Shown here: in pieces, positions 5,821 through 62,204 of the stretch
Layout of the letters: every line of letters begins with the position of its first letter
How positions within the stretch are numbered: position 1 is the first letter of the stretch
Source: an uncultured Candidatus Saccharibacteria bacterium
GTDB lineage: Bacteria; Patescibacteriota; Minisyncoccia; Ryanbacterales; GWA2-47-10b
DNA length: 64,000 nt
NCBI GenBank assembly: GCA_964356915.1
Contig: CAYHJF010000001.1
Span: 4,664-68,663, forward strand
Direction: 5' to 3'
Position numbers and translations under genes: made by a program
The notes under the pieces: model-generated
The model's database searches: none
What the model was told of the DNA's origin: nothing
What the model saw: only the letters and a program-made list of their open reading frames with translations

Positions 5821-6693
5821 TCAAGCTCCTGAATGACGCCAGCGAGCGATAGAAACCAAAAGAGGGCTGGCAATGAAAATTGACGAATACGTACCAACCC
5901 CAATGCCAAGAATTAATGTAAGCGCAAGGTTTTTAGTCGCCTCACCACCAAAAATATACACCGCAACCATGGAAAGGAGCGTGGTCAATGATGTATTAAT
6001 CGATCGACTAATCGTCTCACGGAGACTCTGATCAACGAGTGTCTCAAATTTTTCCTTACCTCCACGGCGCAGATGCTCGCGAACGCGGTCGAAGACAACG
6101 ATTGTATCGTGTACGGAAAACCCAATTACCGTTAATACTGCGGTAATAAAGAGCGCATCAACTTGAATTCTAAAATATGAGAAAACACCGATCGGGATAA
6201 TAACGTCATGGAAGAGCGCAACAACAGCGACAACACCGTAAATCCACGAAGGCAACGGATGAGATACTTTACGAAAGGCCCAGGCAATATACAAAATGAT
6301 AGCAATAAGCGCGATCGTAACTGAAATGACAGCATTGCGCCGTAGCTGATGACCCACCGATGGTCCCGTAGAAGAAAAACTCTTTTCTTCTACACTTCCG
6401 TCCTTACGAAGAGCTTCGAGTAATACATCGTGTTTTTCTTGGGTAAGATATTCTGTACGAATTATTGCGTCAGATCCATTAAACTGGATTGACGAATGAG
6501 AAATGCCCGCGCTCTTAATTGTTTGGCCGACTGCCTCTGCTGACCGCTCAGAGTTAAAGTGTATAGATAATACTGCATCTCCTGTAAAATCAGAGCCTAA
6601 ATTAATACCACGCGTCACAAGTGACAAAGCCGCAGCAGAGAAGAGAACTGCGGAAAGTATGTAAAATATTTTACGTGATCGTACAATGCTCAT
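5821..6693 (-). CDS. secF: protein translocase subunit SecF
   Basis: 290 aa with multi-TM SecF-like topology. Immediately downstream of secD. Confidence 0.88.
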   Translation of the reverse strand: MSIVRSRKIFYILSAVLFSAAALSLVTRGINLGSDFTGDAVLSIHFNSERSAEAVGQTIKSAGISHSSIQFNGSDAIIRTEYLTQEKHDVLLEALRKDGSVEEKSFSSTGPSVGHQLRRNAVISVTIALIAIILYIAWAFRKVSHPLPSWIYGVVAVVALFHDVIIPIGVFSYFRIQVDALFITAVLTVIGFSVHDTIVVFDRVREHLRRGGKEKFETLVDQSLRETISRSINTSLTTLLSMVAVYIFGGEATKNLALTLILGIGVGTYSSIFIASPLLVSIARWRHSGA

Positions 6694-6696
6694 AAA

Positions 6697-7986
6697 TTAT
6701 GGTTTGAGATTAAAGCCACTTGCATAGAAGAAACCTCCCGCCCCCTGTTTACGTGAGTGAAACGCTCGCAAAAATGTGCGCGTAACCGTAATAGCAGAGA
6801 ACATGGAAATCGCGACACCTAAGCCAAGCGTAAGTGCAAACCCCTTCACCGCATCAGACCCGAAGTACCATAGAATAACTGCGGTAATAAGACTTGATGC
6901 ATTAGAATCTCGAATGGACGTCCACGCGCGCTCAAAACCCTCTTCAATAGCAGCACCTAGCGTCTTTCCTTTTCGCAGTTCTTCTTTCATGCGTTCAAAA
7001 ATTAAAATATTTGCATCAACTGCCATGCCAATTGAAAGTACAAAGCCAGCAATACCTGCAGTCGAAAATGTCACGGGAATGAGCTTGAACACACTAAGTG
7101 AAATGGCAGTATATACACCAAGAGCAAGCACTGCGACTAATCCCGGCAATCGATACCACGCAATCATAAAACCAATAACAAAGAGAAGTCCAACAACTGC
7201 AGCAAAGAAACTTTGGCGTAGTGACGCCTCTCCGTGAGCCGGTTCCACTGTTTGCTGTGATATCAACTCAATGGGCACTGGCAACGCTCCTGAATTCAAG
7301 CGCTGGACAAGTGTACGCGCCTCTTCGGTAGTAAACCTACCTGTAATACGTGCCTTTCCTCCAGAAATTTTCTCCTGAACTACAGGAATGCTGATCGGCG
7401 CTCCATCAAGATAGATAGCAATGCTCTTTCCTACATTTTGCGCGGTAAGCTCTTCAAAAAGCCTTGCACCTTCTGAATTAAAAATTAATTCAACGAATGG
7501 GCCGGCCGTCGGGTCAAATTGTAAAGCTGCCCGCTCAACAAAGCGTCCCGTAAGCTCCGTGGGAACATAGACTACTTGTGCCTCCGTTGATGTACCAAGT
7601 TTAAGCTCTTGTGCTGTACGAAACTCTACGTATGGAGTCTCACCGATAAGCGCGATCGCCTCCTTTGCGTCAAAAACGCCAGCAAGCTGTACTTGCAAAC
7701 GATCTTCCTCGCGCGTCCGCTCCACTCTTACGAGCGGTTCGGCAACACCAAAAAAGTTTACTCGACGCTCAACAACGTCACGTAACCCCTCGAGCGCCTC
7801 TGCCCGCTTACTATCTTCAATCTTTGAAAGATCGGCGCGATAGGTCAGATGTACTCCTCCTTTCAAATCAAGTCCGAGTCGAAATGGAACGTTAAACCAT
7901 TCGGGAGCGCCCCATTTTGGATAGACAAAATACCCGGCGGCAAGACCGAGTACAACGAGACCAAGAGCAGCAAGTCGTATTTTCAT
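6697..7986 (-). CDS. secD: protein translocase subunit SecD
   Basis: 429 aa with an N-terminal TM segment, a large periplasmic domain and a C-terminal TM bundle. Gene order is secD-secF. Confidence 0.88.
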   Translation of the reverse strand: MKIRLAALGLVVLGLAAGYFVYPKWGAPEWFNVPFRLGLDLKGGVHLTYRADLSKIEDSKRAEALEGLRDVVERRVNFFGVAEPLVRVERTREEDRLQVQLAGVFDAKEAIALIGETPYVEFRTAQELKLGTSTEAQVVYVPTELTGRFVERAALQFDPTAGPFVELIFNSEGARLFEELTAQNVGKSIAIYLDGAPISIPVVQEKISGGKARITGRFTTEEARTLVQRLNSGALPVPIELISQQTVEPAHGEASLRQSFFAAVVGLLFVIGFMIAWYRLPGLVAVLALGVYTAISLSVFKLIPVTFSTAGIAGFVLSIGMAVDANILIFERMKEELRKGKTLGAAIEEGFERAWTSIRDSNASSLITAVILWYFGSDAVKGFALTLGLGVAISMFSAITVTRTFLRAFHSRKQGAGGFFYASGFNLKP

Positions 7987-21164: not shown

Positions 21165-21530
21165 TTAACCGCCTAAATACGCGTCTGCCATTGCTTCTAC
21201 TAAAATCTGTAGATGCGGGATACTCCCGAACGGCTCAGCATGAGCATGAAGTCTGACATGAGATAAAGTCCATCCAGGATTAAGCTCTAAAAGATACCAT
21301 TCAAAAGGATTGATAGCTCCCGATATTGGATCGGGGCGCAAGATTCGTATCAAACAATCAACATCCTCGTGAGCCTCCTCTAGAGCAGCGAGCACTCCAT
21401 ATGCTCTACGAAATTTTACTCGAGTATCTTCTGAACCTTCGCCATGATGTTTTATACGACTTATGCCTCGTAGTACCAATACACCGAAAAATGCTCGAAA
21501 AAAAGTCCGCGTAAGCATTGACTCTGTCAT
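21165..21530 (-). CDS. hypothetical protein
   Basis: 121-aa ORF with no recognisable motif; possibly a remnant. Confidence 0.4.
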   Translation of the reverse strand: MTESMLTRTFFRAFFGVLVLRGISRIKHHGEGSEDTRVKFRRAYGVLAALEEAHEDVDCLIRILRPDPISGAINPFEWYLLELNPGWTLSHVRLHAHAEPFGSIPHLQILVEAMADAYLGG

Positions 21531-21809
21531 ACAAAAACCTCTCTGTCCTATAGCCTAGCACTGAAAAAAAATAAAAAAAGAACAGCCCTGAGGCCATTCT
21601 TTTTTTATACTGCGGGCTTGGGCGGACGATTTTAGAACCATAAAGTGGGCGGAATACTTCAGAATTCCCGAGTTAGCATTGCGAGAAATGAGGGAGTTAG
21701 TTGGAGAGAGATAATTTTCGAACCTCCAGATATTATAGGTATGTTTGCGGGGGTTGGTAGACATTAGAACTGTTTTGACAGAGCAAAGCCCTACACAACA
21801 GAGAAAGCT

Positions 21810-22451
21810 TCAGAAATTAGGTTGATTCGCAAAGTCAAAAATAGACGGCTCAGAAATAATACGAGTATTTGGTAATAACTGCTTCACTCGTTCCATTTCT
21901 TCAGAAGCAATATCGTTTCCATAAACGTTTAGGGTTTTTAGGTTTTTCAATTTTTTTATATCATTTGGGATTTCTTTCAGATGATTATTTGCATAAAAAT
22001 GCAAGTGACAGGTATTGTCTGCATTATTTACCAAAACTCGAAAAAAACTCGTATGCGTATAAACTTCTTTATCGCATGGTCGCATTGTCACACTTATGCG
22101 ATTATACTCGAGCGGAATATCACTATAGTATTTTTTATAAATGAATTGACCGATGATTGGAGTGACAAGACTATAAAGTATAACAAGTCCATTAAGAAGA
22201 ACACCGACGATGGCAAGGCCTTTTTTAACATCCTTCTGACGATAAGCAGTAATTCCTAAAAATACCCCAACGAAAGGAGCAACGCCCGCTAATAATCCAA
22301 GCGGGGTTGCTATTAAAATAAATTTCCCCAAGTTTAAATTCTCAAAAACCGCGATGGAAGAAACAAAAAACAAAGCGAAAACAAACGGTATAAGTCCCAG
22401 AATAAATGATACGAAAGCTAGCTTAGGATGTCTCTGAATCGTATTTTCCAT
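21810..22451 (-). CDS. membrane-anchored leucine-rich-repeat-like protein (AT-rich gene)
   Basis: 213 aa. Three N-terminal TM helices are followed by an LxxLxLxxN-type repeat (LKEIPNDIKKLKNLKTLNVYGNDI). Local GC is about 35%, clearly below the ~45% background. Confidence 0.55.
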   Translation of the reverse strand: MENTIQRHPKLAFVSFILGLIPFVFALFFVSSIAVFENLNLGKFILIATPLGLLAGVAPFVGVFLGITAYRQKDVKKGLAIVGVLLNGLVILYSLVTPIIGQFIYKKYYSDIPLEYNRISVTMRPCDKEVYTHTSFFRVLVNNADNTCHLHFYANNHLKEIPNDIKKLKNLKTLNVYGNDIASEEMERVKQLLPNTRIISEPSIFDFANQPNF

Positions 22452-22540
22452 ACTTTATAGTAACTTAAATTTGTAAGAATTCTAGCCATTATTTCTGCTA
22501 CAAAAAATCACCTTGATAAACAAGGTGATTCTGCTCATTG

Positions 22541-22615
22541 CGGGCGCGACCGGATTCGAACCGGCGATCTTCTCCGTGACAGGGAGACGTGTTAACCAGG
22601 CTACACCACGCGCCC
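22541..22615 (-). tRNA. tRNA-Asp (anticodon GUC)
   Basis: 75-nt cloverleaf: acceptor GGGCGCG/CGCGCCC, anticodon stem TCTCC/GGAGA, loop CTGTCAC, T-arm GCCGG-TTCGAAT-CCGGT. Confidence 0.9.
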
Positions 22616-22645
22616 ACTATTCTTACCTATCGAACCGAAACCATA

Positions 22646-22668
22646 CGCCGGCAGGAGGGATCGATTTC
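22646..22668 (-). repeat. direct repeat of the tRNA-Met 3' end (T-loop, T-stem and acceptor 3' strand)
   Basis: GCCGGCAGGAGGGATCGA(18 nt) is identical to 22762-22779 inside the tRNA-Met gene. No matching 5' acceptor strand is nearby. Confidence 0.7.
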
Positions 22669-22760
22669 CTTCTCAGAAATTCCGGGGTTTCGCTATGCTT
22701 CGCATATAGCTCAACCCTTCGCCCCCTCACACAAGCAAAGCAGTTTGCTTGTTCTGCCTG

Positions 22761-22832
22761 TGCCGGCAGGAGGGATCGAACCTCCGACCTAAGGCTTATG
22801 AGTCCTTCGCTCTACCACTGAGCTATGCCGGC
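22761..22832 (-). tRNA. tRNA with CAU anticodon (elongator Met or Ile2)
   Basis: 72 nt: acceptor GCCGGCA/TGCCGGC fully paired, D-arm GCTC-AGTGGTA-GAGC, anticodon loop CTCATAA, T-arm GGAGG-TTCGATC-CCTCC. Confidence 0.85.
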
Positions 22833-22917
22833 ATAAAAGTAATGTTCATATAGAATACACAAAAAATATAAGGCTTGCAATAAAAAACGCCTACTTTAAA
22901 AGAAGCGGCGTCCCGAC

Positions 22918-23310
22918 TCATGTTTTATCACGCTCTACTATCACACTCTGACAAAGCTCTATACACCCCGTACAAATCTGTGCGGAACTCTTCGTATACA
23001 GTAGCTTTGTTTCTGAAGCCGAGACAAGGCAGAAACCACACTGACCGCTTGCTGAAAACAGAGGATCGATAGTAGCTGACGGTAAACCACTTACACTCCC
23101 CACGCACTGACTACATATCACCGTGCTGTATGTATGAAAAAGTCTACGACCTTCTTCCCCCGAAGCATCACAAAATGAACACTTCCAACGAGGTACGAGC
23201 GACATATTTCCTCCGACGAAACCATAGCAAAGACAAGTCAATTGAGCAATATAAAATCGCATGCTACACTCCGCGCAGATTGAACCTTGAGTAGGAGGGT
23301 TCATGTACAT
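22918..23310 (-). CDS. hypothetical Cys-rich zinc-ribbon protein
   Basis: 130 aa with five CxxC pairs (CAEC, CSFC, CSQC, CGFC, CTGC). Confidence 0.5.
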   Translation of the reverse strand: MYMNPPTQGSICAECSMRFYIAQLTCLCYGFVGGNMSLVPRWKCSFCDASGEEGRRLFHTYSTVICSQCVGSVSGLPSATIDPLFSASGQCGFCLVSASETKLLYTKSSAQICTGCIELCQSVIVERDKT

Positions 23311-24271
23311 CGGCGGGATTCATTTTGGTCCAGTGTGGGGCGCGTCAGGCGTCCAAGGATTTTTTGGCGAAGGCTATAGTAACCATACACTCTGGCGTCC
23401 CTTTGGACTTAGTTTTGATGACATGACTTTTGTCGCAAAAACGACAACCCTACACGCCAACAAAGGTAACATGCCGCTCACTGAGCGCTACACACCTCAA
23501 GAATGGCACCCCAAATGCATCATCGTAAAACCCTTCGCTGGTGTCGTACTCAATGCCGTCGGCCTCTCAGGACCCGGTACCCGCGCACTGCTGGCAACAA
23601 ATCGCTGGCAAGCACGACGAGAACCATTTTTTCTTTCATTCTCAGCGATTGGTCAAACGCCTGAGGACCGCATTGCCGAAGCAATCACATTTGCTGAACT
23701 CATTACCGATGAGCGACAAAATTTCCGAGCGCCGTTTGGACTACAGGTAAATATATCCTGTCCCAATACGCCGCACTCAATACAACATGTAGCGGAAGAA
23801 ACGGAATCACTTCTCGCAGCTCTTAGCACTCGTCTCTTTGATGTACCGCTCGTGGTGAAGCTCTCCGCGATCACACCCATCGAGATCGCCCGAGACGTTG
23901 CCTCCTCTTCATTTTGCGCCGGGCTTTGCGTCTCAAATACAATCCCATTTGGCGCCTTGCCTACATATATACCATGGGAAAGACTCTTTGGCAGTCGGGC
24001 AATCTCCCCTCTCATGGCATACGTTGGACAACCGGGCGGCCTTTCAGGAGCGCCACTGCTCCCAATCGTTACCAACTGGGTCAAGCGTGCGCGTGATATT
24101 GGTATCACAAAACCAATTAACGCCGGAGGTGGCGTTCTCACCATTCGCGGCATCAGTCGTTTGCGCGATGCGGGCGCATCCTCATGTTCCATTGGTAGCA
24201 TTGCGATACTGCGCCCATGGCGCGTTGCGTCACTCATCCGATTTGCTCATGCAATTCAATGGTCAACGTAA
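23303..24271 (+). CDS. dihydroorotate dehydrogenase-family (PyrD-like) flavoprotein
   Basis: NAVGLSGPG, NISCPNT, VVKLS, GGLSG and GGGV blocks typical of class-1 DHOD / dihydropyrimidine dehydrogenase TIM barrels. Confidence 0.75.
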   Translation: MYIGGIHFGPVWGASGVQGFFGEGYSNHTLWRPFGLSFDDMTFVAKTTTLHANKGNMPLTERYTPQEWHPKCIIVKPFAGVVLNAVGLSGPGTRALLATNRWQARREPFFLSFSAIGQTPEDRIAEAITFAELITDERQNFRAPFGLQVNISCPNTPHSIQHVAEETESLLAALSTRLFDVPLVVKLSAITPIEIARDVASSSFCAGLCVSNTIPFGALPTYIPWERLFGSRAISPLMAYVGQPGGLSGAPLLPIVTNWVKRARDIGITKPINAGGGVLTIRGISRLRDAGASSCSIGSIAILRPWRVASLIRFAHAIQWST

Positions 24272-24999: not shown

Positions 25000-25245
25000 T
25001 TATTTTCCTTTGATCAATATAAGTTTTTCTGTGCGCGTCATTCGTTTAATCTGAGCCTCTCGTTTTTGCGCTACCGACCGTGTACTACGAATTTCCTGGT
25101 ACACGATCTTTTTTGGCTCATGACTTCTTGTATACCGCGCACCCCTACCATCTCTATGCTCTATAAAGCGTCTCTGAACATCGGTTGCAACCCCCGTGTA
25201 CAAACTTCCATCCTTGCATTCAAGAATATATACACTCCATTTCAT
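25000..25245 (-). CDS. GIY-YIG nuclease-superfamily protein (YhbQ/UPF0213-like)
   Basis: WSVYILECKDGSLYTGVATDVQRRFIEHRDGRGARYT carries the GIY...YTG and catalytic Arg/Glu pattern. The likely start is at 25245. Confidence 0.85.
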   Translation of the reverse strand: MKWSVYILECKDGSLYTGVATDVQRRFIEHRDGRGARYTRSHEPKKIVYQEIRSTRSVAQKREAQIKRMTRTEKLILIKGK

Positions 25246-25300
25246 AATATATTCAGTATAGCCATAATAAAAACTGCCCGCATATACGGGCAAGGTTATT

Positions 25301-25498
25301 TCAAGTTTTTTGTAAGCGCTGCGTATGAATCTCCAAGCGTCCATCTGAAGTATCTACGAAAAAACATCCATCCTTCGTGGAAGGTCCGACAATAGTTCCA
25401 AAGAAATCATCGACAGAAGCTATATGTTTACTACCAGTATTAATTTTGACTCGATCGCCAGGCTTATAATCGCATGGCATGACCGACTCTCCAGACAT
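25301..25498 (-). CDS. small hypothetical protein (65 aa)
   Basis: ATG at 25498 is preceded by a GGAGG Shine-Dalgarno at 7-nt spacing. It is the C-terminal part of a longer, otherwise implausible 195-aa ORF in the track. Confidence 0.55.
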   Translation of the reverse strand: MSGESVMPCDYKPGDRVKINTGSKHIASVDDFFGTIVGPSTKDGCFFVDTSDGRLEIHTQRLQKT

Positions 25499-31079: not shown

Positions 31080-31127
31080 TTAAGGATATAACAATATCTG
31101 AGCAACAAAGGTAACACTTCTTTAATT

Positions 31128-31200
31128 AGTTGCGGGGGTTGGATTTGGTTTGCCTTATCGCAAACCCGCGGCATGCCCCCAGCATGCCGTTCAAATCCTC
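31128..31200 (-). repeat. degenerate partial copy of the tRNA-fMet 3' end, embedded in a tRNA-like hairpin remnant
   Basis: AGTTGCGGGGGTTGGATTTG (20 nt, plus strand) is identical to 31264-31283 at the 3' end of tRNA-fMet. The adjacent sequence forms hairpins (GGCATGC-tgggg-GCATGCC; GGTTTGC-gataag-GCAAACC) but does not fold into a complete tRNA. Confidence 0.6.
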
Positions 31201-31265
31201 CCGCCTCCCTACGAATGCATAAATAAAAAAAGCTGACACATTGTGCCAACTTTTTTATTTATGAG

Positions 31266-31339
31266 TTGCGGGGGTTGGATTTGAACCAACGACCTCAAGG
31301 TTATGAGCCTTGCGAGCTACCAGGCTGCTCCACCCCGCG
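31266..31339 (-). tRNA. initiator tRNA-fMet (anticodon CAU)
   Basis: 74 nt with C1xA72 acceptor mismatch (CGCGGGG / CCCCGCA+A) and A11:U24 in the D-stem, both initiator hallmarks. Anticodon loop CTCATAA; T-arm GTTGG-TTCAAAT-CCAAC. Confidence 0.87.
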
Positions 31340-48997: not shown

Positions 48998-49069
48998 GCC
49001 CTCGTCGTTCAACGGATAGGACACAAGATTGCGGATCTTGTAATTGAGGTTCGATTCCTCACGAGGGCA
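48998..49069 (+). tRNA. tRNA-Arg (anticodon GCG as encoded)
   Basis: 72 nt: acceptor GCCCTCG/CGAGGGC+A, D-arm GTTC/GGAC, anticodon stem CAAGA/TCTTG with loop TTGCGGA, T-arm TGAGG-TTCGATT-CCTCA. Confidence 0.82.
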
Positions 49070-49081
49070 CAACTATTCAAA

Positions 49082-53744: not shown

Positions 53745-53784
53745 GTCCGCTCCCCTGGACTCGAACCAGGAACCGCCGAGGTAT
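53745..53784 (-). tRNA. 3' half of a split tRNA (anticodon-loop 3' part TATAC, variable loop, T-arm, acceptor 3' strand GGAGCGG+A)
   Basis: TATAC-CTCGG-CGGTT-CCTGG-TTCGAGT-CCAGG-GGAGCGG-A. The acceptor 3' strand is perfectly complementary to CCGCTCC at 53963-53969. Confidence 0.65.
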
Positions 53785-53827
53785 ATCTACGATCTGGAAG
53801 GTTCGCTCGGATCAACTGCAAATGTAT

Positions 53828-53900
53828 ATCCGCCTGCTTGGACTCGAACCAAGAACCCCCGAGGTATAAGCTCGGTGCTCTAACCATTGAGCTACAGGCG
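53828..53900 (-). tRNA. tRNA-Ile (anticodon UAU as encoded), complete, nested between the two halves of the split tRNA
   Basis: 73 nt: acceptor CCGCCTG/CAGGCGG+A, D-arm GCTC-AATGGTTA-GAGC, anticodon stem CCGAG/CTCGG with loop CTTATAC, T-arm CTTGG-TTCGAGT-CCAAG. Confidence 0.8.
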
Positions 53901-53933
53901 GACGCACATTTTCAATAATCATTCGCTGCCTTC

Positions 53934-53969
53934 CATAAGCTCAGTGCTCTAACCATTGAGCTAGGAGCG
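53934..53969 (-). tRNA. 5' half of a split tRNA (acceptor 5' strand CCGCTCC, D-arm, anticodon stem 5' strand and CTTAT)
   Basis: CCGCTCC-TA-GCTC-AATGGTTA-GAGC-A-CTGAG-CTTAT. The D-arm is identical to the nested tRNA. The fragment ends in the anticodon. Confidence 0.65.
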
Positions 53970-54002
53970 GATACGGACTATCACTAGTATAGTCCGCTCG
54001 AG

Positions 54003-59700: not shown

Positions 59701-60329
59701 ACTTGCTCCCATGTCATTCCTACCGCATCCTGTATATTTATCTTTTTTTGTTCGATACCACGCGCGATCTCTGACCAGCTTTGCGCAAAATTAATTGGAC
59801 GAGGCGCTTCTGCCTGAACCGGCATCGATTCGGGTGCGACTATTGCCTCTGTAGCTGAAACTGGGCTTTCAACAACGATGCCTTCTGGAGCTGCTTTAGC
59901 AGAAACAGGATTTAAAACTTCTGAAACTTTTGGTACCTCTGGAACTATTGTTTTTTGCTCGAGTTGCTGAGTATTGAGCGTTGTATTTGTAACTACAGTA
60001 GAAGCTCCTGATGTCGTCGTGGAAGGCGCGGAAACCGTCGGATTAATTCTTTGCTTTTCCTCTTCACGCTTTTTTGCAATTGCTTCAGCAATACCTGCAA
60101 ACGATGCTGGGCTTACAGGTAAAATATCATCCGTATCAAGTACCGGAGCATTCTCAGGAAGACCCGCTCCTTTTGTTACTCGCACTCCTTCTGGCGCAAT
60201 CGTAATATCAGGAGCATCGATATGCTCCGCTTGTTCACGAATCTGTCCCGTAAGCGCCTCTAAATCTGCATCGGGCGCAATATCAGGACGTTCTTGTTCT
60301 GGCACGTTTGTCGACGGACCTTCATTCAT
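56742..60329 (-). CDS. giant hypothetical protein (1195 aa) with disordered N-terminus and a Gly/Ser-rich degenerate repeat block
   Basis: Single uninterrupted ORF. The N-terminal ~200 aa is Pro/Glu/Ala/Thr/Ser-rich low complexity. The central block has five degenerate x-G-G-x-F repeats (ADGTFIE, AGGSFVA, AGGAFSG, VDGVFIN, AVGAFVQ). No signal peptide or TM helix recognised. Confidence 0.7.
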   Translation of the reverse strand: MNEGPSTNVPEQERPDIAPDADLEALTGQIREQAEHIDAPDITIAPEGVRVTKGAGLPENAPVLDTDDILPVSPASFAGIAEAIAKKREEEKQRINPTVSAPSTTTSGASTVVTNTTLNTQQLEQKTIVPEVPKVSEVLNPVSAKAAPEGIVVESPVSATEAIVAPESMPVQAEAPRPINFAQSWSEIARGIEQKKINIQDAVGMTWEQVAQAADTKRRDDMTRGVVHLGNRLNENIERGFGWVTNAIAERIPSRYRKSSVGRFLIELRDGAYKNAERTQKSRLSYEDMGTVRKAMYGVGSIGSLVGKPLRWGAIAAGYAVPPFMLAMSAGRVGETAKGARFKNETYIEDELRVKDADEAAEEAWALYEEAKKSSAGGPVSAEALGKTYEKKSAANIAERLGRREQGYSAFAFTQRVMDRYVRSRADWIAGRVQAIEENPHRSRTEKDEALARVMRIHASFLRDADNMISQAGVVDLHSARAYTLEKGGKGATLGLTAGAGLKFWSNIYSFFDRHPLTDLDYHVVEGAKTAVREGVPIIKKGFSTASNYLSRMIDGQAEHGGIMGSGGGGAVPPSGGSSGSIGYPPPAFLDENSGSADGTFIERGSAGGSFVAPMGRGSAGGAFSGERPASVDGVFINPIEAHGSGSAVGAFVQHPTASHSEVYSDAMEAAVSKLGAKREAVACVLRNSMDEIERNMASRNGKIEELQRWLADTQTNVEQAGQYKVQIADFKAEIGELDNDFRMVGEQYDYFLREGKLDLVCSPTGDVTREHILEALLAKYGATPRYYTPEMETALDSLQPNYESSAGSFVLETYTLQKGDSPIRALVELYKRSPEGVAKYLGVEPGSLKIADIERLVSRRVVGEYLVEYGQKGGAHFDPKSPESWQAHDILQRAIKGWSEQHHTDPDMSKPEVLNGILSKIPKKDFNLVLHDRVPNLVHAGDVLKVNSAGDYEIFSPKGDVRSGHIPEGGRVHTMSQRVLAPEVAVSTPGEQVVPTNDDGLLDQPNTDTNNVFEPSVSGLPEGETLLGNVGEHSEITYGLEKNPFEGAAWETYIHPDGAVTGRVDLTSYFKGYALDRGRPEWKNFKVFDRIEGFDLPDADGKMDGELDVVRVFDKKRRVIVEVMRGLDDDGRVFSETKRHLYDRVVRHVAEYTDGLRGKNPVRGLDINDGPTGFGRLNHDPAFNYIQPGRSPKE

Positions 60330-60409
60330 ACTGTGTAGTATATCAAAGTAAAATATAAATTGACATGAAAAAAATCTGTGGGGAAAAATTTCTCACAGAT
60401 TATTTAAAA

Positions 60410-60460
60410 AAATCCCGCCTAAAAACGAAACGCCCCGAGAAGATTGCTCTTCTCGGGGGC
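60410..60460 (-). terminator. terminator hairpin at the low-GC/high-GC junction
   Basis: GCCCCGAGAAG-attgct-CTTCTCGGGGGC (bulged) followed on the minus strand by GTTTCGTTTTT. Confidence 0.5.
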
Positions 60461-60517
60461 TGGGTCTTCGCGCGTTGACGAAGAACGTTGAGTTGATGTT
60501 GTTGTTGCTGGTGTCGG

Positions 60518-62029
60518 TCAGCTCGCCGTGGACGCCTGAGCGTCTTCGGAGCGCTGCTGATGCTTGCCGCCGGAACGCCGAGCCTGCGGGTTGGCCGCGT
60601 TGGCGACCATACGCTCCTTGAGGGAGGTGAAGATCGCACAGAACGGCTCGGGCAGATCGGCCACGAGGGTGAAGTCGGCGACCTTGCCGACCGCCTCGTC
60701 CCACTGGGCTTCGTTGTGGTCCACGATGCGGACCTTGCCGTCCCCGTCGCACTCGACGAGGAAGTCACACGCCACGGCGATGTCGCTGTCCTTCAGATAG
60801 ATGACGGCCGTACCCTTCTTCCCGTCGACGATGACGTCGTGGGCGTTGAGCGTGGCATCACCGCGCAGGTTCTTGCGAGCGCCCTTGTCGGCGCCGTCGA
60901 CCTTCTTGGTGCGGGCACGTTCGGCGCGCTGTTCGGCCGCGTGGAGTACCCGCTGGAGCATCTTCATCGTGACGATCATCGCCGTGAACGCTTCCTGCGG
61001 CAGACGCCGAGGGAAGTTGAGCTGGCCGTCGACGAGAGCGGTGACCGGGATGCCGAGACGAGTCTCGGCGGCGCGTTCGACCACACCCTTGCTGCGACCG
61101 ACCGCGGTGATGGGGAAGATCTCCCCGTCCTTGATCGTGATCTTGATGTCGGCGGCCGGATAGAACCGATTGGTAGCCTGCTCTCCAGGAACGTGCACCA
61201 CGATGGTGCTCTCCCGCTGCTCGTTGACGCAGGCGTTGACCGCCTGCTCGAGCGTGAGCTCGTCGGCACCCTCCTTGAGTACCGCGACCTCGATCGCGAT
61301 CTCATCGCGCCGCTTGGCGTCGAGCTTGCCGGAGATCTCGCGAAGTCCGGAGAAGATGGCCGCGATCATGCTGGCAGGAAGGTCACACACGAGGAGCTGA
61401 CGCTCCCAGCGGTTTCCACCCATGTCGATCGTGACGCCGTGCGTCTCGCGACGATTCTCGACCGTGACCGGAAGCTGCACGCCCCGAGACACGTCCGTAC
61501 CGTTGTCCGCCTTCCGCCAGAACCCGAGCCGAAGCCCGAGATCCGCGATGAAGTTGAGAGCCGAGCGCGCCGCCATCTCACCGTCTTCGGTGGTGATGTC
61601 GAACGCACCGGTCACATCTTCGGTCTCGCCGGGCTTGCTCTCGCTCGGCATCTTGAACTCGCCCGTGCGGACGATCTCGACGACGCCGCCGATGAGCGCG
61701 ACCGTGAGGTCAGCGCGGCCCGGCTTGGTCGGCCAGGCCTTGATGTAGGACACGAGGACCTGATCGACCTGGACCCAGAGCTGCTCGACGACGTTGCGAT
61801 ACGTCGCGGGATCGGCGAGCGAGCTGACGATCAGGATGACGTTCTCCGTGATCGTTGCCATGCTCTGCGTGAGCGTGGCCGTGAGCTGCCGGATTCCGAC
61901 CGGCGTGAGCAGATCGAGCTTCCCGAGTGCCGGAGGAATCCTCAGGCCACCGACGGTGACCGAGGCACCCACCTTGCCGATCTCGGCGAGGCTCTTGACG
62001 ACGTTTCCGTTGCGATCGTGCTTCTTCAT
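60518..62029 (-). CDS. hypothetical protein encoded in a ~65% GC block (foreign-looking)
   Basis: 503-aa ORF. ATG at 62029 is preceded by GGAGG at 7-nt spacing. The protein is Ala/Gly/Val/Arg/Asp-rich. In-frame competing ORFs on every strand are typical of high-GC DNA. No motif recognised. Confidence 0.65.
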   Translation of the reverse strand: MKKHDRNGNVVKSLAEIGKVGASVTVGGLRIPPALGKLDLLTPVGIRQLTATLTQSMATITENVILIVSSLADPATYRNVVEQLWVQVDQVLVSYIKAWPTKPGRADLTVALIGGVVEIVRTGEFKMPSESKPGETEDVTGAFDITTEDGEMAARSALNFIADLGLRLGFWRKADNGTDVSRGVQLPVTVENRRETHGVTIDMGGNRWERQLLVCDLPASMIAAIFSGLREISGKLDAKRRDEIAIEVAVLKEGADELTLEQAVNACVNEQRESTIVVHVPGEQATNRFYPAADIKITIKDGEIFPITAVGRSKGVVERAAETRLGIPVTALVDGQLNFPRRLPQEAFTAMIVTMKMLQRVLHAAEQRAERARTKKVDGADKGARKNLRGDATLNAHDVIVDGKKGTAVIYLKDSDIAVACDFLVECDGDGKVRIVDHNEAQWDEAVGKVADFTLVADLPEPFCAIFTSLKERMVANAANPQARRSGGKHQQRSEDAQASTAS

Positions 62030-62204
62030 GACATTCCTCCAATTGTTCCCTCTTTTACCCGGCCGCTGTGCGGTTGTTTTTGAGTAAAAGAGTTTTGTCG
62101 ATGAACACGGTCTCCGATATGGATATACCGCTTGCTACAACAACATATTGTGAAGAACTTCTCCCTCCCGTTTGGTATATCGGGCAAGAGCTTTAAGTTC
62201 GTTA

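Follow-up and report, generated by a model that had tools for sequence, protein, structure and literature searches.

Behind the tRNA-Met(CAU) gene stands a discrete module of approximately 115 nt, which lies on the tRNA strand between tRNA-Met and tRNA-Asp and uses a second, exact copy of 18 nt from the tRNA 3' end as the 3' strand of its own fold. We prefer to explain it as a miniature non-coding insertion module of tRNA genes, which doubles the tRNA 3' end and is retained as a structured RNA, and regard this explanation as about an even call. For the non-coding module with the 18-mer as its 3' strand we coined the name tRNA 3'-end echo element. Related modules stand behind several tRNA species; their structure is conserved in the manner of RNA, their arms match the host tRNA, and both filled and empty sites are found. 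The relevant features of the window (the whole stretch of DNA that was analyzed, 64 kb) are given below, with the basis of each assignment in parentheses.

22852-22880, minus strand: promoter-like TTGCAA (22875-22880), 17-nt spacer and TATTCT (22852-22857) (read from sequence)
22760-22832, minus strand: tRNA-Met(CAU), elongator type, CCA not encoded (ARAGORN; Rfam RF00005, 71.2 bits)
22762-22779, minus strand: R, first copy of the 18-mer, tRNA positions 55-72 (repeat and motif search)
22754-22758, minus strand: P1' (GGCAG), antisense of tRNA positions 65-69, 3 nt past the discriminator (folds)
22731-22752, minus strand: H1, 9-bp hairpin ACAAGCAAA-CUGC-UUUGCUUGU with conserved apex AACUGCUU (sequence, family alignment)
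22718-22728, minus strand: IR-L (GAGGGGGCGAA), 11-nt antisense of tRNA positions 54-64, i.e., T-loop and T-stem 3' strand (folds)
22685-22717, minus strand: P3, hairpin GGGUU..AACCC with inner stem GCUAUAUGC/GCAUAGC (folds)
22664-22681, minus strand: P4, hairpin AAUUUCU-GAGA-AGGAAAU with GNRA-type loop (folds)
22647-22664, minus strand: R', second copy of tRNA-Met positions 55-72, which pairs with P1' and IR-L and closes the module (repeat search, alignment)
22540-22615, minus strand: tRNA-Asp(GUC), 31 nt past R', in the same transcription unit (ARAGORN, Rfam)
22500-22530, minus strand: hairpin AAUCACCUUG-UUUAU-CAAGGUGAUU with a U run behind it, probably the terminator of the Met-Asp unit (inverted repeat, sequence)
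31125-31264, minus strand: sister element behind tRNA-fMet (31265-31339), without H1 (folds, repeat, weak match to model R1)

The 18-mer, GCCGGCAGGAGGGATCGA on the plus strand, has two exact occurrences in the 64 kb, at 22647-22664 and 22762-22779, and with 18 of 18 identical positions it bears out the claim of an earlier note that the 3' end of tRNA-Met(CAU) is repeated exactly. The spacing given there, approximately 95 nt, needs a small correction: the copies are 115 nt apart from start to start, with 97 nt in between. A second match is unlikely to arise by chance (0.03 expected; 0 of 100 dinucleotide shuffles gave two), and no third match was found in the window even when 3 mismatches were allowed. 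The repeat spans the 3' part of the T-loop and the 3' strands of the T-stem and the acceptor stem (positions 55-72). Its identity breaks off sharply, in the T-loop on one side and on the other just before the discriminator, which is A73 in tRNA-Met and G73 in R'. The 97-nt interval holds no ORF.

On the minus strand, the order is promoter-like sequence, tRNA-Met, 97-nt spacer, R', 31 nt, tRNA-Asp, and a hairpin with a U run. Because of this order, the spacer and R' lie within a probable two-tRNA (Met-Asp) transcription unit. TTGCAA-N17-TATTCT, approximately 20 nt upstream of the gene, may be a weak tRNA-Met promoter, judging from its sequence; its consensus score is 8/12, which is below the scan threshold. 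A consensus terminator scan of 22300-23000 called no terminator, also not at the hairpin at 22500-22530. The window is part of the chromosome of a patescibacterium (CPR), and in other assemblies of the same Hainich groundwater population the locus is identical. Window genes near the locus have housekeeping roles (PheS/PheT, multicopper oxidase, MscL, GatA/GatC). After an identical protein, the next best homologue of the DHODH-like protein (23303-24271) is only 56% identical, and therefore no close relative could be reached through proteins. For the neighboring 130-aa protein no database record was found.

Folding of the stretch after tRNA-Met pairs R' with GGCAG and GAGGGGGCGAA and places two further hairpins inside. 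The earlier note described the copy as lacking a 5' partner strand, but the partners are present at 22754-22758 (GGCAG) and 22718-22728 (GAGGGGGCGAA). Joined together, P1' and IR-L are the reverse complement of tRNA positions 54-69, with H1 inserted between 64 and 65, and IR-L sits 2 nt (GU) past H1. The perfect 9-bp hairpin that had been noticed in the spacer is H1 itself, found at 22731-22752; it is followed by GUGAGGGG without a U run, so it does not qualify as an intrinsic terminator. IR-L can form 9 Watson-Crick pairs and one G.U pair (of 11) with tRNA-Met, as compared to 8 pairs with R'. Folded alone, the window element gives z = -3.2. The RF00005 cloverleaf had no match on 22641-22759, even at E up to 10, and the module holds partial sequence echoes of the tRNA only. 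In the modeled fold its helices would resemble an RNase P or RNase Z substrate in helical form only.

The same signature had been reported at tRNA-fMet, and a 19-mer of this tRNA indeed recurs (31129-31147 and 31265-31283). The element behind it consists of a terminator-like hairpin, the antisense GCGGG-A-GGAUUUGAA (IR-L at 31190-31200), two hairpins, and R' at 31129-31147. Its fold has z = -6.1 and its match to model R1 is weak (15.1 bits). The 13 nt of the fMet 3' end that also occur at 21745-21757 can be put down to chance (approximately 0.7 matches expected). The tRNA within a tRNA that the earlier note had seen at the UAU locus of the window is a genuine nested tRNA, and nested tRNAs also occur in L038.

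In what follows, W is the window element and L-numbers are loci of relatives. The spacers of W, L094 and L028 are plainly homologous, their independent folds give the same architecture, and in these three genus-level relatives the element is syntenic between tRNA-Met and tRNA-Asp. The covariance model R1, built from these three elements, finds 13 members in Patescibacteria contigs, attached to Met, fMet, Asp and Thr tRNAs, and scores W at 137 bits, W being one of the three sequences in the model. In the family, the element starts 0-50 nt after the tRNA, and this interval is often an intrinsic terminator. The element opens with an antisense to the 3' strand of the acceptor stem, which varies and can be missing; there follow an A, H1, a G plus one base, and the 54-64 antisense, which always ends in the complement of U54-U55-C56. 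The body contains one or two hairpins, and in L051 a complete tRNA-Thr paralogue. The 3' part is a tRNA copy from position 55/56 to the 3' end, with CCA where the gene encodes CCA; in L027, L041 and L110 the copy also includes a second terminator. The window element has the parts that define an echo element, i.e., a 54-64 antisense on the tRNA strand, at most 260 nt downstream, with the hairpin of apex AACUGCUU before it and an 18-nt copy after it. A second type, found in the window fMet element, L041 and L009, has no H1 and an internal loop at positions 63-65. The ORFs flanking the elements differ between loci and no neighbor gene is conserved. At gathering scores, Rfam had no match to the spacers of the window and 15 loci, and with E up to 10 it had none on 21400-23000 or on an Asp-type element. 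The family is new to Rfam, and no description of such an element was found in the open-access papers and bioRxiv preprints searched.

The alignment of W, L094 and L028 contains 41 pairs, 15 of which have changes on both sides. In the 13-member alignment, 34 of the 41 pairs change on both sides and 95.8% of the cells are paired, a figure that is inflated by fitting the alignment to the model structure. None of 500 shuffles reached any of these measures, and slid partners gave approximately 40% pairing. Changes on both sides were found for all 5 pairs of helix 1 (P1'), all 9 pairs of H1 (which pairs in all members, with 99.1% of cells paired), 10 of the 14 pairs of helix 4 (P3), and 6 of the 7 pairs of helix 5 (P4). 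Family pairs include 23 G.U against 6 A.C, and the P4 loops are of GNRA type on the tRNA strand; therefore, the selected structure is most likely a sense RNA. The apex AACUGCUU is common to elements behind Met, fMet and Asp tRNAs, and the Thr-associated element of L051 keeps the CUGC loop with C-G as closing pair. Among W, L094 and L028, the element is 79-85% identical, as compared to approximately 70% for coding DNA, and the flanking spacer is unalignable.

A metagenome scan for the tRNA-Met anticodon arm yielded 108 tRNA-Met loci. A copy of the 3' terminus was present 63-204 nt downstream in approximately 13 of them and a copy of the 5' terminus upstream in approximately 6; terminal 3' copies occur downstream only and terminal 5' copies upstream only. 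In L006, for instance, a copy of the tRNA-Met 5' end lies 76 nt upstream of tRNA-Met. Among 224 unique tRNAs, a 54-64 antisense (at least 10 of 11 matching) was found downstream of 21 and upstream of 2, and perfect 11-mers were found 10 times downstream, once as an inverted fragment in L005, vs. never upstream. Approximately 1 in 10 tRNA genes in this mostly patescibacterial sample carry a structured appendix of copy and antisense, an estimate of prevalence that is biased toward tRNA-Met because the loci were picked via a tRNA-Met pattern. L005 belongs to the alphaproteobacterium Halovulum marinum and has three antisense matches. Two stand behind tRNA-Ser genes; they lack H1, but their bodies are homologous and built on the same logic. 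The one behind tRNA-Gly is the inverted tRNA fragment.

It is the real tRNA that the antisense tracks, and not the copy. Among the 19 tabulated elements, 9 have an 11-mer that complements their own tRNA perfectly; over the 19 elements the 11-mer pairs with 8-11 tRNA positions, and in 18 of them with fewer positions of the copy. In L094, L028 and L032, the T-loop part of the copy has drifted and the antisense still complements the tRNA. An odd T-loop UGC in L110 is mirrored by GCA in the antisense, though the copy omits those bases, and L033 has lost the acceptor part of the copy, yet its GUAGC still complements the tRNA end. The T-stem variant GCAGG/CCUGC of L028 is mirrored in both antisense and copy. 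Across tRNA species, every member has antisense arms and a copy that match its local tRNA; R' has decayed in L032, L033 and the fMet locus of L013. When tRNA and element are folded together, the structure of lowest energy at each of the 13 loci has the first 3' end paired with the antisense and the tRNA body closed by the downstream copy. This swapped fold has -78.2 kcal/mol in the window vs. -72.4 kcal/mol for the cloverleaf with a separate element; both values are equilibrium predictions, in which co-transcriptional folding and fast tRNA processing are ignored.

Comparison of relatives with the same tRNA reveals gain or loss of the element. L031 and L028 have the same tRNA-Met sequence, followed directly by AGGGTCTCGGCAAAAGACCTTCGGG in L031, whereas in L028 the matching sequence, AGGGTCTTGGCAAAAGACCTTTGGG, comes only after the second copy; as read from these sequences, L031 is a precise empty site relative to L028. 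Of the lineages whose tRNA-Met is identical, W, L094 and L028 have the element, and L006, L031 and L061 do not. L006 (Patescibacteria H43-bin009_1), the one relative found by scanning species-representative genomes for the tRNA 3' end, has the identical tRNA-Met and no element, with tRNA-Asp following after only 40 nt. L041 has two elements, behind different tRNAs, whose cores are near-identical over approximately 60 nt as judged by eye. That homologous H1 modules stand behind unrelated tRNAs means that the module must have spread from one locus to another.

This spread bears on the most credible alternative, which we nevertheless consider unlikely: a vertically inherited, cis-acting RNA that benefits the host. 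The module would then be a tRNA-derived trailer that mimics an acceptor/T-arm minihelix and acts in pre-tRNA processing, for instance as the site at which RNase P or RNase Z recognizes the transcript and parts tRNA-Met from tRNA-Asp, or else as a read-through decoy or regulator, with its patchy distribution resulting from repeated precise loss between the two copies. The synteny in three genus-level relatives, the identity above that of coding DNA next to unalignable spacer, the strong covariation, the G.U bias and the GNRA-type loops all agree with such a role, and compensatory changes in syntenic orthologues fit a vertical functional RNA equally well. The same can be said of P1 beginning 3 nt past the discriminator, of the copies retaining the discriminator (plus CCA where gene-encoded), and of the intrinsic terminators after R' in several loci. 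However, H1 modules behind unrelated tRNA species point to past movement between loci, the antisense follows the tRNA and not the decaying R', close relatives with the same tRNAs manage without the element, and in many loci a terminator lies between tRNA and element.

As an insertion module, the explanation that we prefer, the element would at the DNA level be a small unit bounded by the duplicated tRNA 3' end, and the tRNA gene would therefore stay intact. It could be gained or precisely lost via exchange within the repeated 3' end, and near-identical tRNA genes on either side could be the homology arms; the unit encodes no enzyme for its own exchange. At the RNA level, read-through from the tRNA promoter would produce a transcript that folds into junctions imitating the acceptor/T-arm stack. 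The T-loop complement within the antisense could act as a toehold, and since the antisense both fits the tRNA better than the copy and has this toehold, it is predicted to capture the first 3' end. In the full-length transcript, the antisense would take the first 3' end and the copy would close the tRNA body. Either fold would leave one intact 3' end available, and the element may be tolerated because this is always so. Its mobility and its function are what we infer from these data; in the cell it might signal processing, act as a decoy, or control transcripts that read through. A more specific proposal, to which we give a small chance as a whole, is a base-pair-programmed T-arm device in which H1 is the handle and the guides at its sides would open the matching tRNA, or the tRNA gene, from the T-loop and swap the 3' strand by toehold displacement; such a device would be either a new type of mobile element that rewrites its guides for each tRNA it colonizes or a bacterial T-loop intervening sequence excised without a group I ribozyme.

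A neutral origin, to which we give a lesser chance still, would make the module a pseudo-tRNA, left by tandem duplication of part of the tRNA and now decaying, with hairpins and a complementarity to the tRNA that are kept by DNA-level processes (quasi-palindrome correction, slippage, gene conversion) and not by selection. The bodies of Asp-type elements do open with a forward copy of positions 42-51 (AGGGGUCG..), and longer partial tRNA copies, sometimes in tandem, occur in L053 and at the Met loci of L040 and L059. A lineage-specific duplication of 180 nt with an 18-nt direct repeat at its flanks, present in L013 and absent in its relative L033, also fits such an origin. Furthermore, the H1 stems are nearly all Watson-Crick, quasi-palindrome correction of DNA could keep a perfect antisense without an RNA function, and conversion from a nearby inverted repeat predicts an antisense that follows the tRNA. 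On the other hand, identity in the window breaks off sharply, leaving no similarity upstream of the 18-mer, and the H1 apex sequence is kept across loci and genomes. The 34 of 41 covarying pairs, the excess of G.U over A.C, and an element far better conserved than the adjacent spacer speak against neutral decay as well.

Very improbable, in our judgment, is a T-loop intervening sequence that is intron-like but not of group I, in which R' would complete the functional tRNA and everything from position 55/56 through the hairpins would be cut out, perhaps as a circle. The minimum-energy fold agrees with such an arrangement, as R' closes the tRNA body and R is paired with the antisense at all 13 loci folded, and the antisense stops exactly at position 54, leaving the T-stem 5' strand free. 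The clade also tolerates interruptions of tRNA genes, in the form of nested tRNAs (window and L038) and of a group I intron that splits tRNA-fMet in L006 (Rfam RF00028, 66.7 bits). However, the upstream tRNA needs no splicing to be complete, L032 and L033 have a defective R', that of the window has G73 instead of A73, and a terminator often lies between R and the rest. Inspection of the junctions by eye revealed no bulge-helix-bulge or group I features, and there was no Rfam intron match. A group I intron is also present in L054, in a gene that may or may not be a tRNA gene.

Several other identities were considered and rejected. AACTGCTT, a candidate DNA uptake signal, is not enriched (5 found vs. 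2.4 expected), and RF00028 has no match in the window. By eye, we found no hammerhead core around H1, no C/D or H/ACA boxes, no integron attC R boxes, and no IS91 GTTC target junction; a retroviral-type primer-binding site was sought as a complement to the last 7 nt or CCA, and by eye there was none.

The earlier note had mainly read the repeat as a classic integrase footprint, i.e., attL and attR left by a tyrosine-integrase element whose integrase and cargo were later deleted. A Pfam scan of 20 ORFs at 15-31 kb of the window found no recombinase, and no integrase turned up at 17-33 kb, a range that reaches approximately 5 kb upstream and 10 kb downstream of the tRNA-Met locus. The approximately 17 terminal 3'-end repeats among 227 tRNAs enclose only 60-210 nt, none with an integrase or cargo, as compared to approximately 9-23 kb or more in reported integrations flanked by tRNA fragments (PMC9897764). 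No distant copies of the repeats were found within the loci, which reach up to approximately 14 kb. Blastn of window 21-25 kb against phages matched tRNAs only, the 18-mer had a single chance match in IMG/VR, in GC-rich coding DNA, and a degenerate pattern of hairpin plus antisense gave no hairpin among the 120 IMG/VR matches listed. The analysis linked no transposase, integrase or other enzyme to the element and came across no intermediate. In related loci, the only recombinase seen is a serine recombinase next to tRNA-Asp in L094, outside the repeats; in L041 a LAGLIDADG ORF directly follows the element, also outside the repeats.

Although the repeat runs from the T-loop to the tRNA 3' end, as in integration sites (PMC9897764), and an empty site exists (L031 vs. 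L028), the integrase scar is the least supported reading, largely refuted and hardly credible, with no integrase near the locus, no cargo between the repeats, no attP among the IMG/VR matches listed, a homologous covarying structure that is not expected from independent deletions, and antisense arms that it leaves unexplained. An occupied version in relatives, which the earlier note had suggested looking for, did not turn up in the form of an integrase or cargo between the repeats. What does survive is the idea that the repeats bound an insertion unit, in view of the precise empty site in L031, though not the origin of that unit by loss of integrase and cargo; the fallback of a miniature element comes close to the discrete non-coding unit described here. 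The note had also said that a spacer and repeat conserved and syntenic in all relatives, such as a structured trailer, would speak against integration: W, L094 and L028 indeed have a conserved, syntenic, structured trailer, but L006, L031 and L061 lack it.

A selfish element of this kind would represent a new way to colonize tRNA genes harmlessly, being tiny and non-coding, with arms fitted to the host tRNA. One that serves the cell would point to an unknown step in how bacteria whose set of RNases is reduced mature or control their tRNAs. Seen alongside the nested tRNAs, the group I intron and the duplicated 5' ends, the element suggests that the tRNA genes of this clade are unusually prone to invasion. 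For annotation, it means that short repeats of tRNA ends should not automatically be taken as boundaries of genomic islands.

Integrative elements reportedly produce attL/attR duplications of tRNA 3' ends (Reiter 1989; Williams 2002). At such sites, attL and attR duplicate the 3' end so that one complete and one partial tRNA copy result (PMC9897764). The echo element shares with them a direct repeat that starts in the T-loop, an intact gene, and filled and empty sites among relatives. It differs in that 97 nt instead of kilobases lie between the repeats, with no integrase or cargo in approximately 17 cases, and in that the interval is a conserved, covarying RNA structure that includes antisense to the tRNA.

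Other small elements offer further parallels. CIMEs are non-autonomous elements bounded by att sites, and MITEs, e.g., the Correia elements, occur in many copies per genome, each with terminal inverted repeats of fixed sequence and a short duplication of the target site. Like these, the echo element is small and non-coding, has inverted arms, can be transcribed into a hairpin RNA, and would depend on functions supplied in trans. Unlike in MITEs, its inverted arms differ at each tRNA, where they match the host, so that there is no fixed terminal inverted repeat; the duplication is 14-31 nt or more, and the copy number is low as far as the 64 kb of the source genome show (two copies). Unlike both CIMEs and MITEs, it is confined to sites immediately downstream of tRNA genes, always in the same orientation.

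At the RNA level, the tRNA-like domain of tmRNA and viral tRNA-like structures are tRNA mimics based on the acceptor/T-arm stack. External guide sequences of RNase P and small guide RNAs of tRNase Z are likewise acceptor/T-arm mimics of tRNA (PMC9141469). In the modeled fold, the element resembles them by joining a 5' strand to a tRNA-type 3' strand, with stacked acceptor-like and T-stem-like helices, and its side arm stands where the D and anticodon arms would be. In contrast to these mimics, it has no T-loop, the segment being fully paired with two hairpins in its place, and the register is off by one pair.

The disrupted tRNA genes of Archaea reportedly include split tRNAs with complementary leaders (Fujishima 2010; Randau 2005). 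Non-canonical introns, including in the T-loop, transposing introns and split tRNAs are described for them (PMC10714607). The element differs from these in occurring in a bacterium, behind a tRNA that is complete without splicing, and with no bulge-helix-bulge recognized. It shares with them extra structured sequence at tRNA loops, complementary segments that unite parts of a tRNA, and a proposed spread between different tRNA genes. Compared to the group I introns of bacterial tRNA genes, the element of 115 nt is too small, stands after the tRNA, has no Rfam match, and does not show the U.G and terminal G features; what the two have in common is that such introns occur in the same clade (L006) and that a guide pairs with the end of the upstream exon.

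Two further tRNA loci in the window carry duplicated tRNA sequence, one in the manner of the echo element (the ~115-nt non-coding module 3' of tRNA-Met that holds an antisense and a copy of the tRNA 3' end) and one as a gene nested within a gene. These are given here with a tRNA that bears on decoding.

31125-31264: echo-type element 3' of tRNA-fMet, following the same logic as the tRNA-Met element but lacking H1, the conserved 9-bp hairpin
53746-53970, minus strand: tRNA-Ile(UAU) within another tRNA-Ile(UAU)
48998-49070: tRNA-Arg, anticodon GCG

Downstream of tRNA-fMet, a strong terminator-like hairpin precedes the element, in which two hairpins separate the antisense GCGGG-A-GGAUUUGAA from a 19-nt repeat of the tRNA 3' end; the element folds with a z-score of -6.1. 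Elsewhere, within the intergenic region 21700-21760, 13 nt of the tRNA-fMet 3' end recur in direct orientation (21745-21757), adjoined by a GGAGGUUCGAAAA-like T-arm sequence; taken alone, this 13-mer is not in excess over chance (~0.7 expected).

Analogous trailers occur in a tRNA array of the alphaproteobacterium Halovulum marinum (L005, 7200-7610 and 4690-4760). Here, an antisense of tRNA positions 54-64, perfect or nearly so, lies 3' of each of two tRNA-Ser genes, and both trailers have a homologous GC-rich body, to which that of tRNA-Ser GGA adds a 16-nt 3'-end copy with CCA. The 3' fragment of another tRNA lies inverted 3' of tRNA-Gly in the same array.

At the UAU locus, the inner tRNA-Ile (53828-53902, minus strand) is carried by a 152-nt insert (53783-53934) that interrupts the outer, paralogous tRNA-Ile directly 3' of the anticodon. 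Without the insert, whose ends are mutually complementary (GGAAGG/CCUUCC), the outer gene is a perfect tRNA according to ARAGORN. The acceptor and T stems show compensated changes between the inner and outer tRNAs. A second case of such nesting was seen in contig L038 (~900-1300), where the D-loop of one tRNA-Met holds a hairpin-ended insertion containing a complete second tRNA-Met.

Group I introns were found at two of the compared loci, L006 (1-352) and L054 (2713-2964). The former, from a related Patescibacteria genome, has a 257-nt intron splitting tRNA-fMet just 5' of the anticodon (Rfam, 66.7 bits), and the trailer of this tRNA also folds back onto the acceptor 3' strand.

ORFs with nuclease- or recombinase-type domains were also observed near tRNA loci. 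In L041, a free-standing LAGLIDADG homing-endonuclease-like ORF (6539-7147) lies immediately downstream of the tRNA-Met echo element and ahead of tRNA-Asp, an intergenic position matching that of the echo element in the window. In L094, the tRNA-Asp 3' end is adjoined, downstream of the echo element, by an ORF (1097-2110) whose domains are those of large serine recombinases (Recombinase, Zn_ribbon_recom). The window itself has a small GIY-YIG domain ORF (25000-25344, 114 aa) 2.2 kb from the tRNA-Met locus, a candidate for either a homing-endonuclease-type nuclease or a UvrC-like fragment.

The GCG anticodon is uncommon for bacterial tRNA-Arg, ACG being usual, and its occurrence together with tRNA-Ile(UAU) suggests an unusual decoding set. 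Region 60001-62100 has a GC content of 0.60, against ~0.45 elsewhere, and contains two overlapping ORFs of ~500 aa, one on the minus strand (60518-62029) and the other on the plus strand (60560-62083).

Finally, copies of 13-26 nt of the tRNA 5' end occur 70-100 nt upstream of tRNA-Met or fMet in L006 (6066-6158), L107, L097, L032 and L027. They sometimes include promoter-like sequence and are often broken by a D-loop hairpin and cut off in the anticodon arm, forming a mirror image of the downstream 3'-end echo elements.
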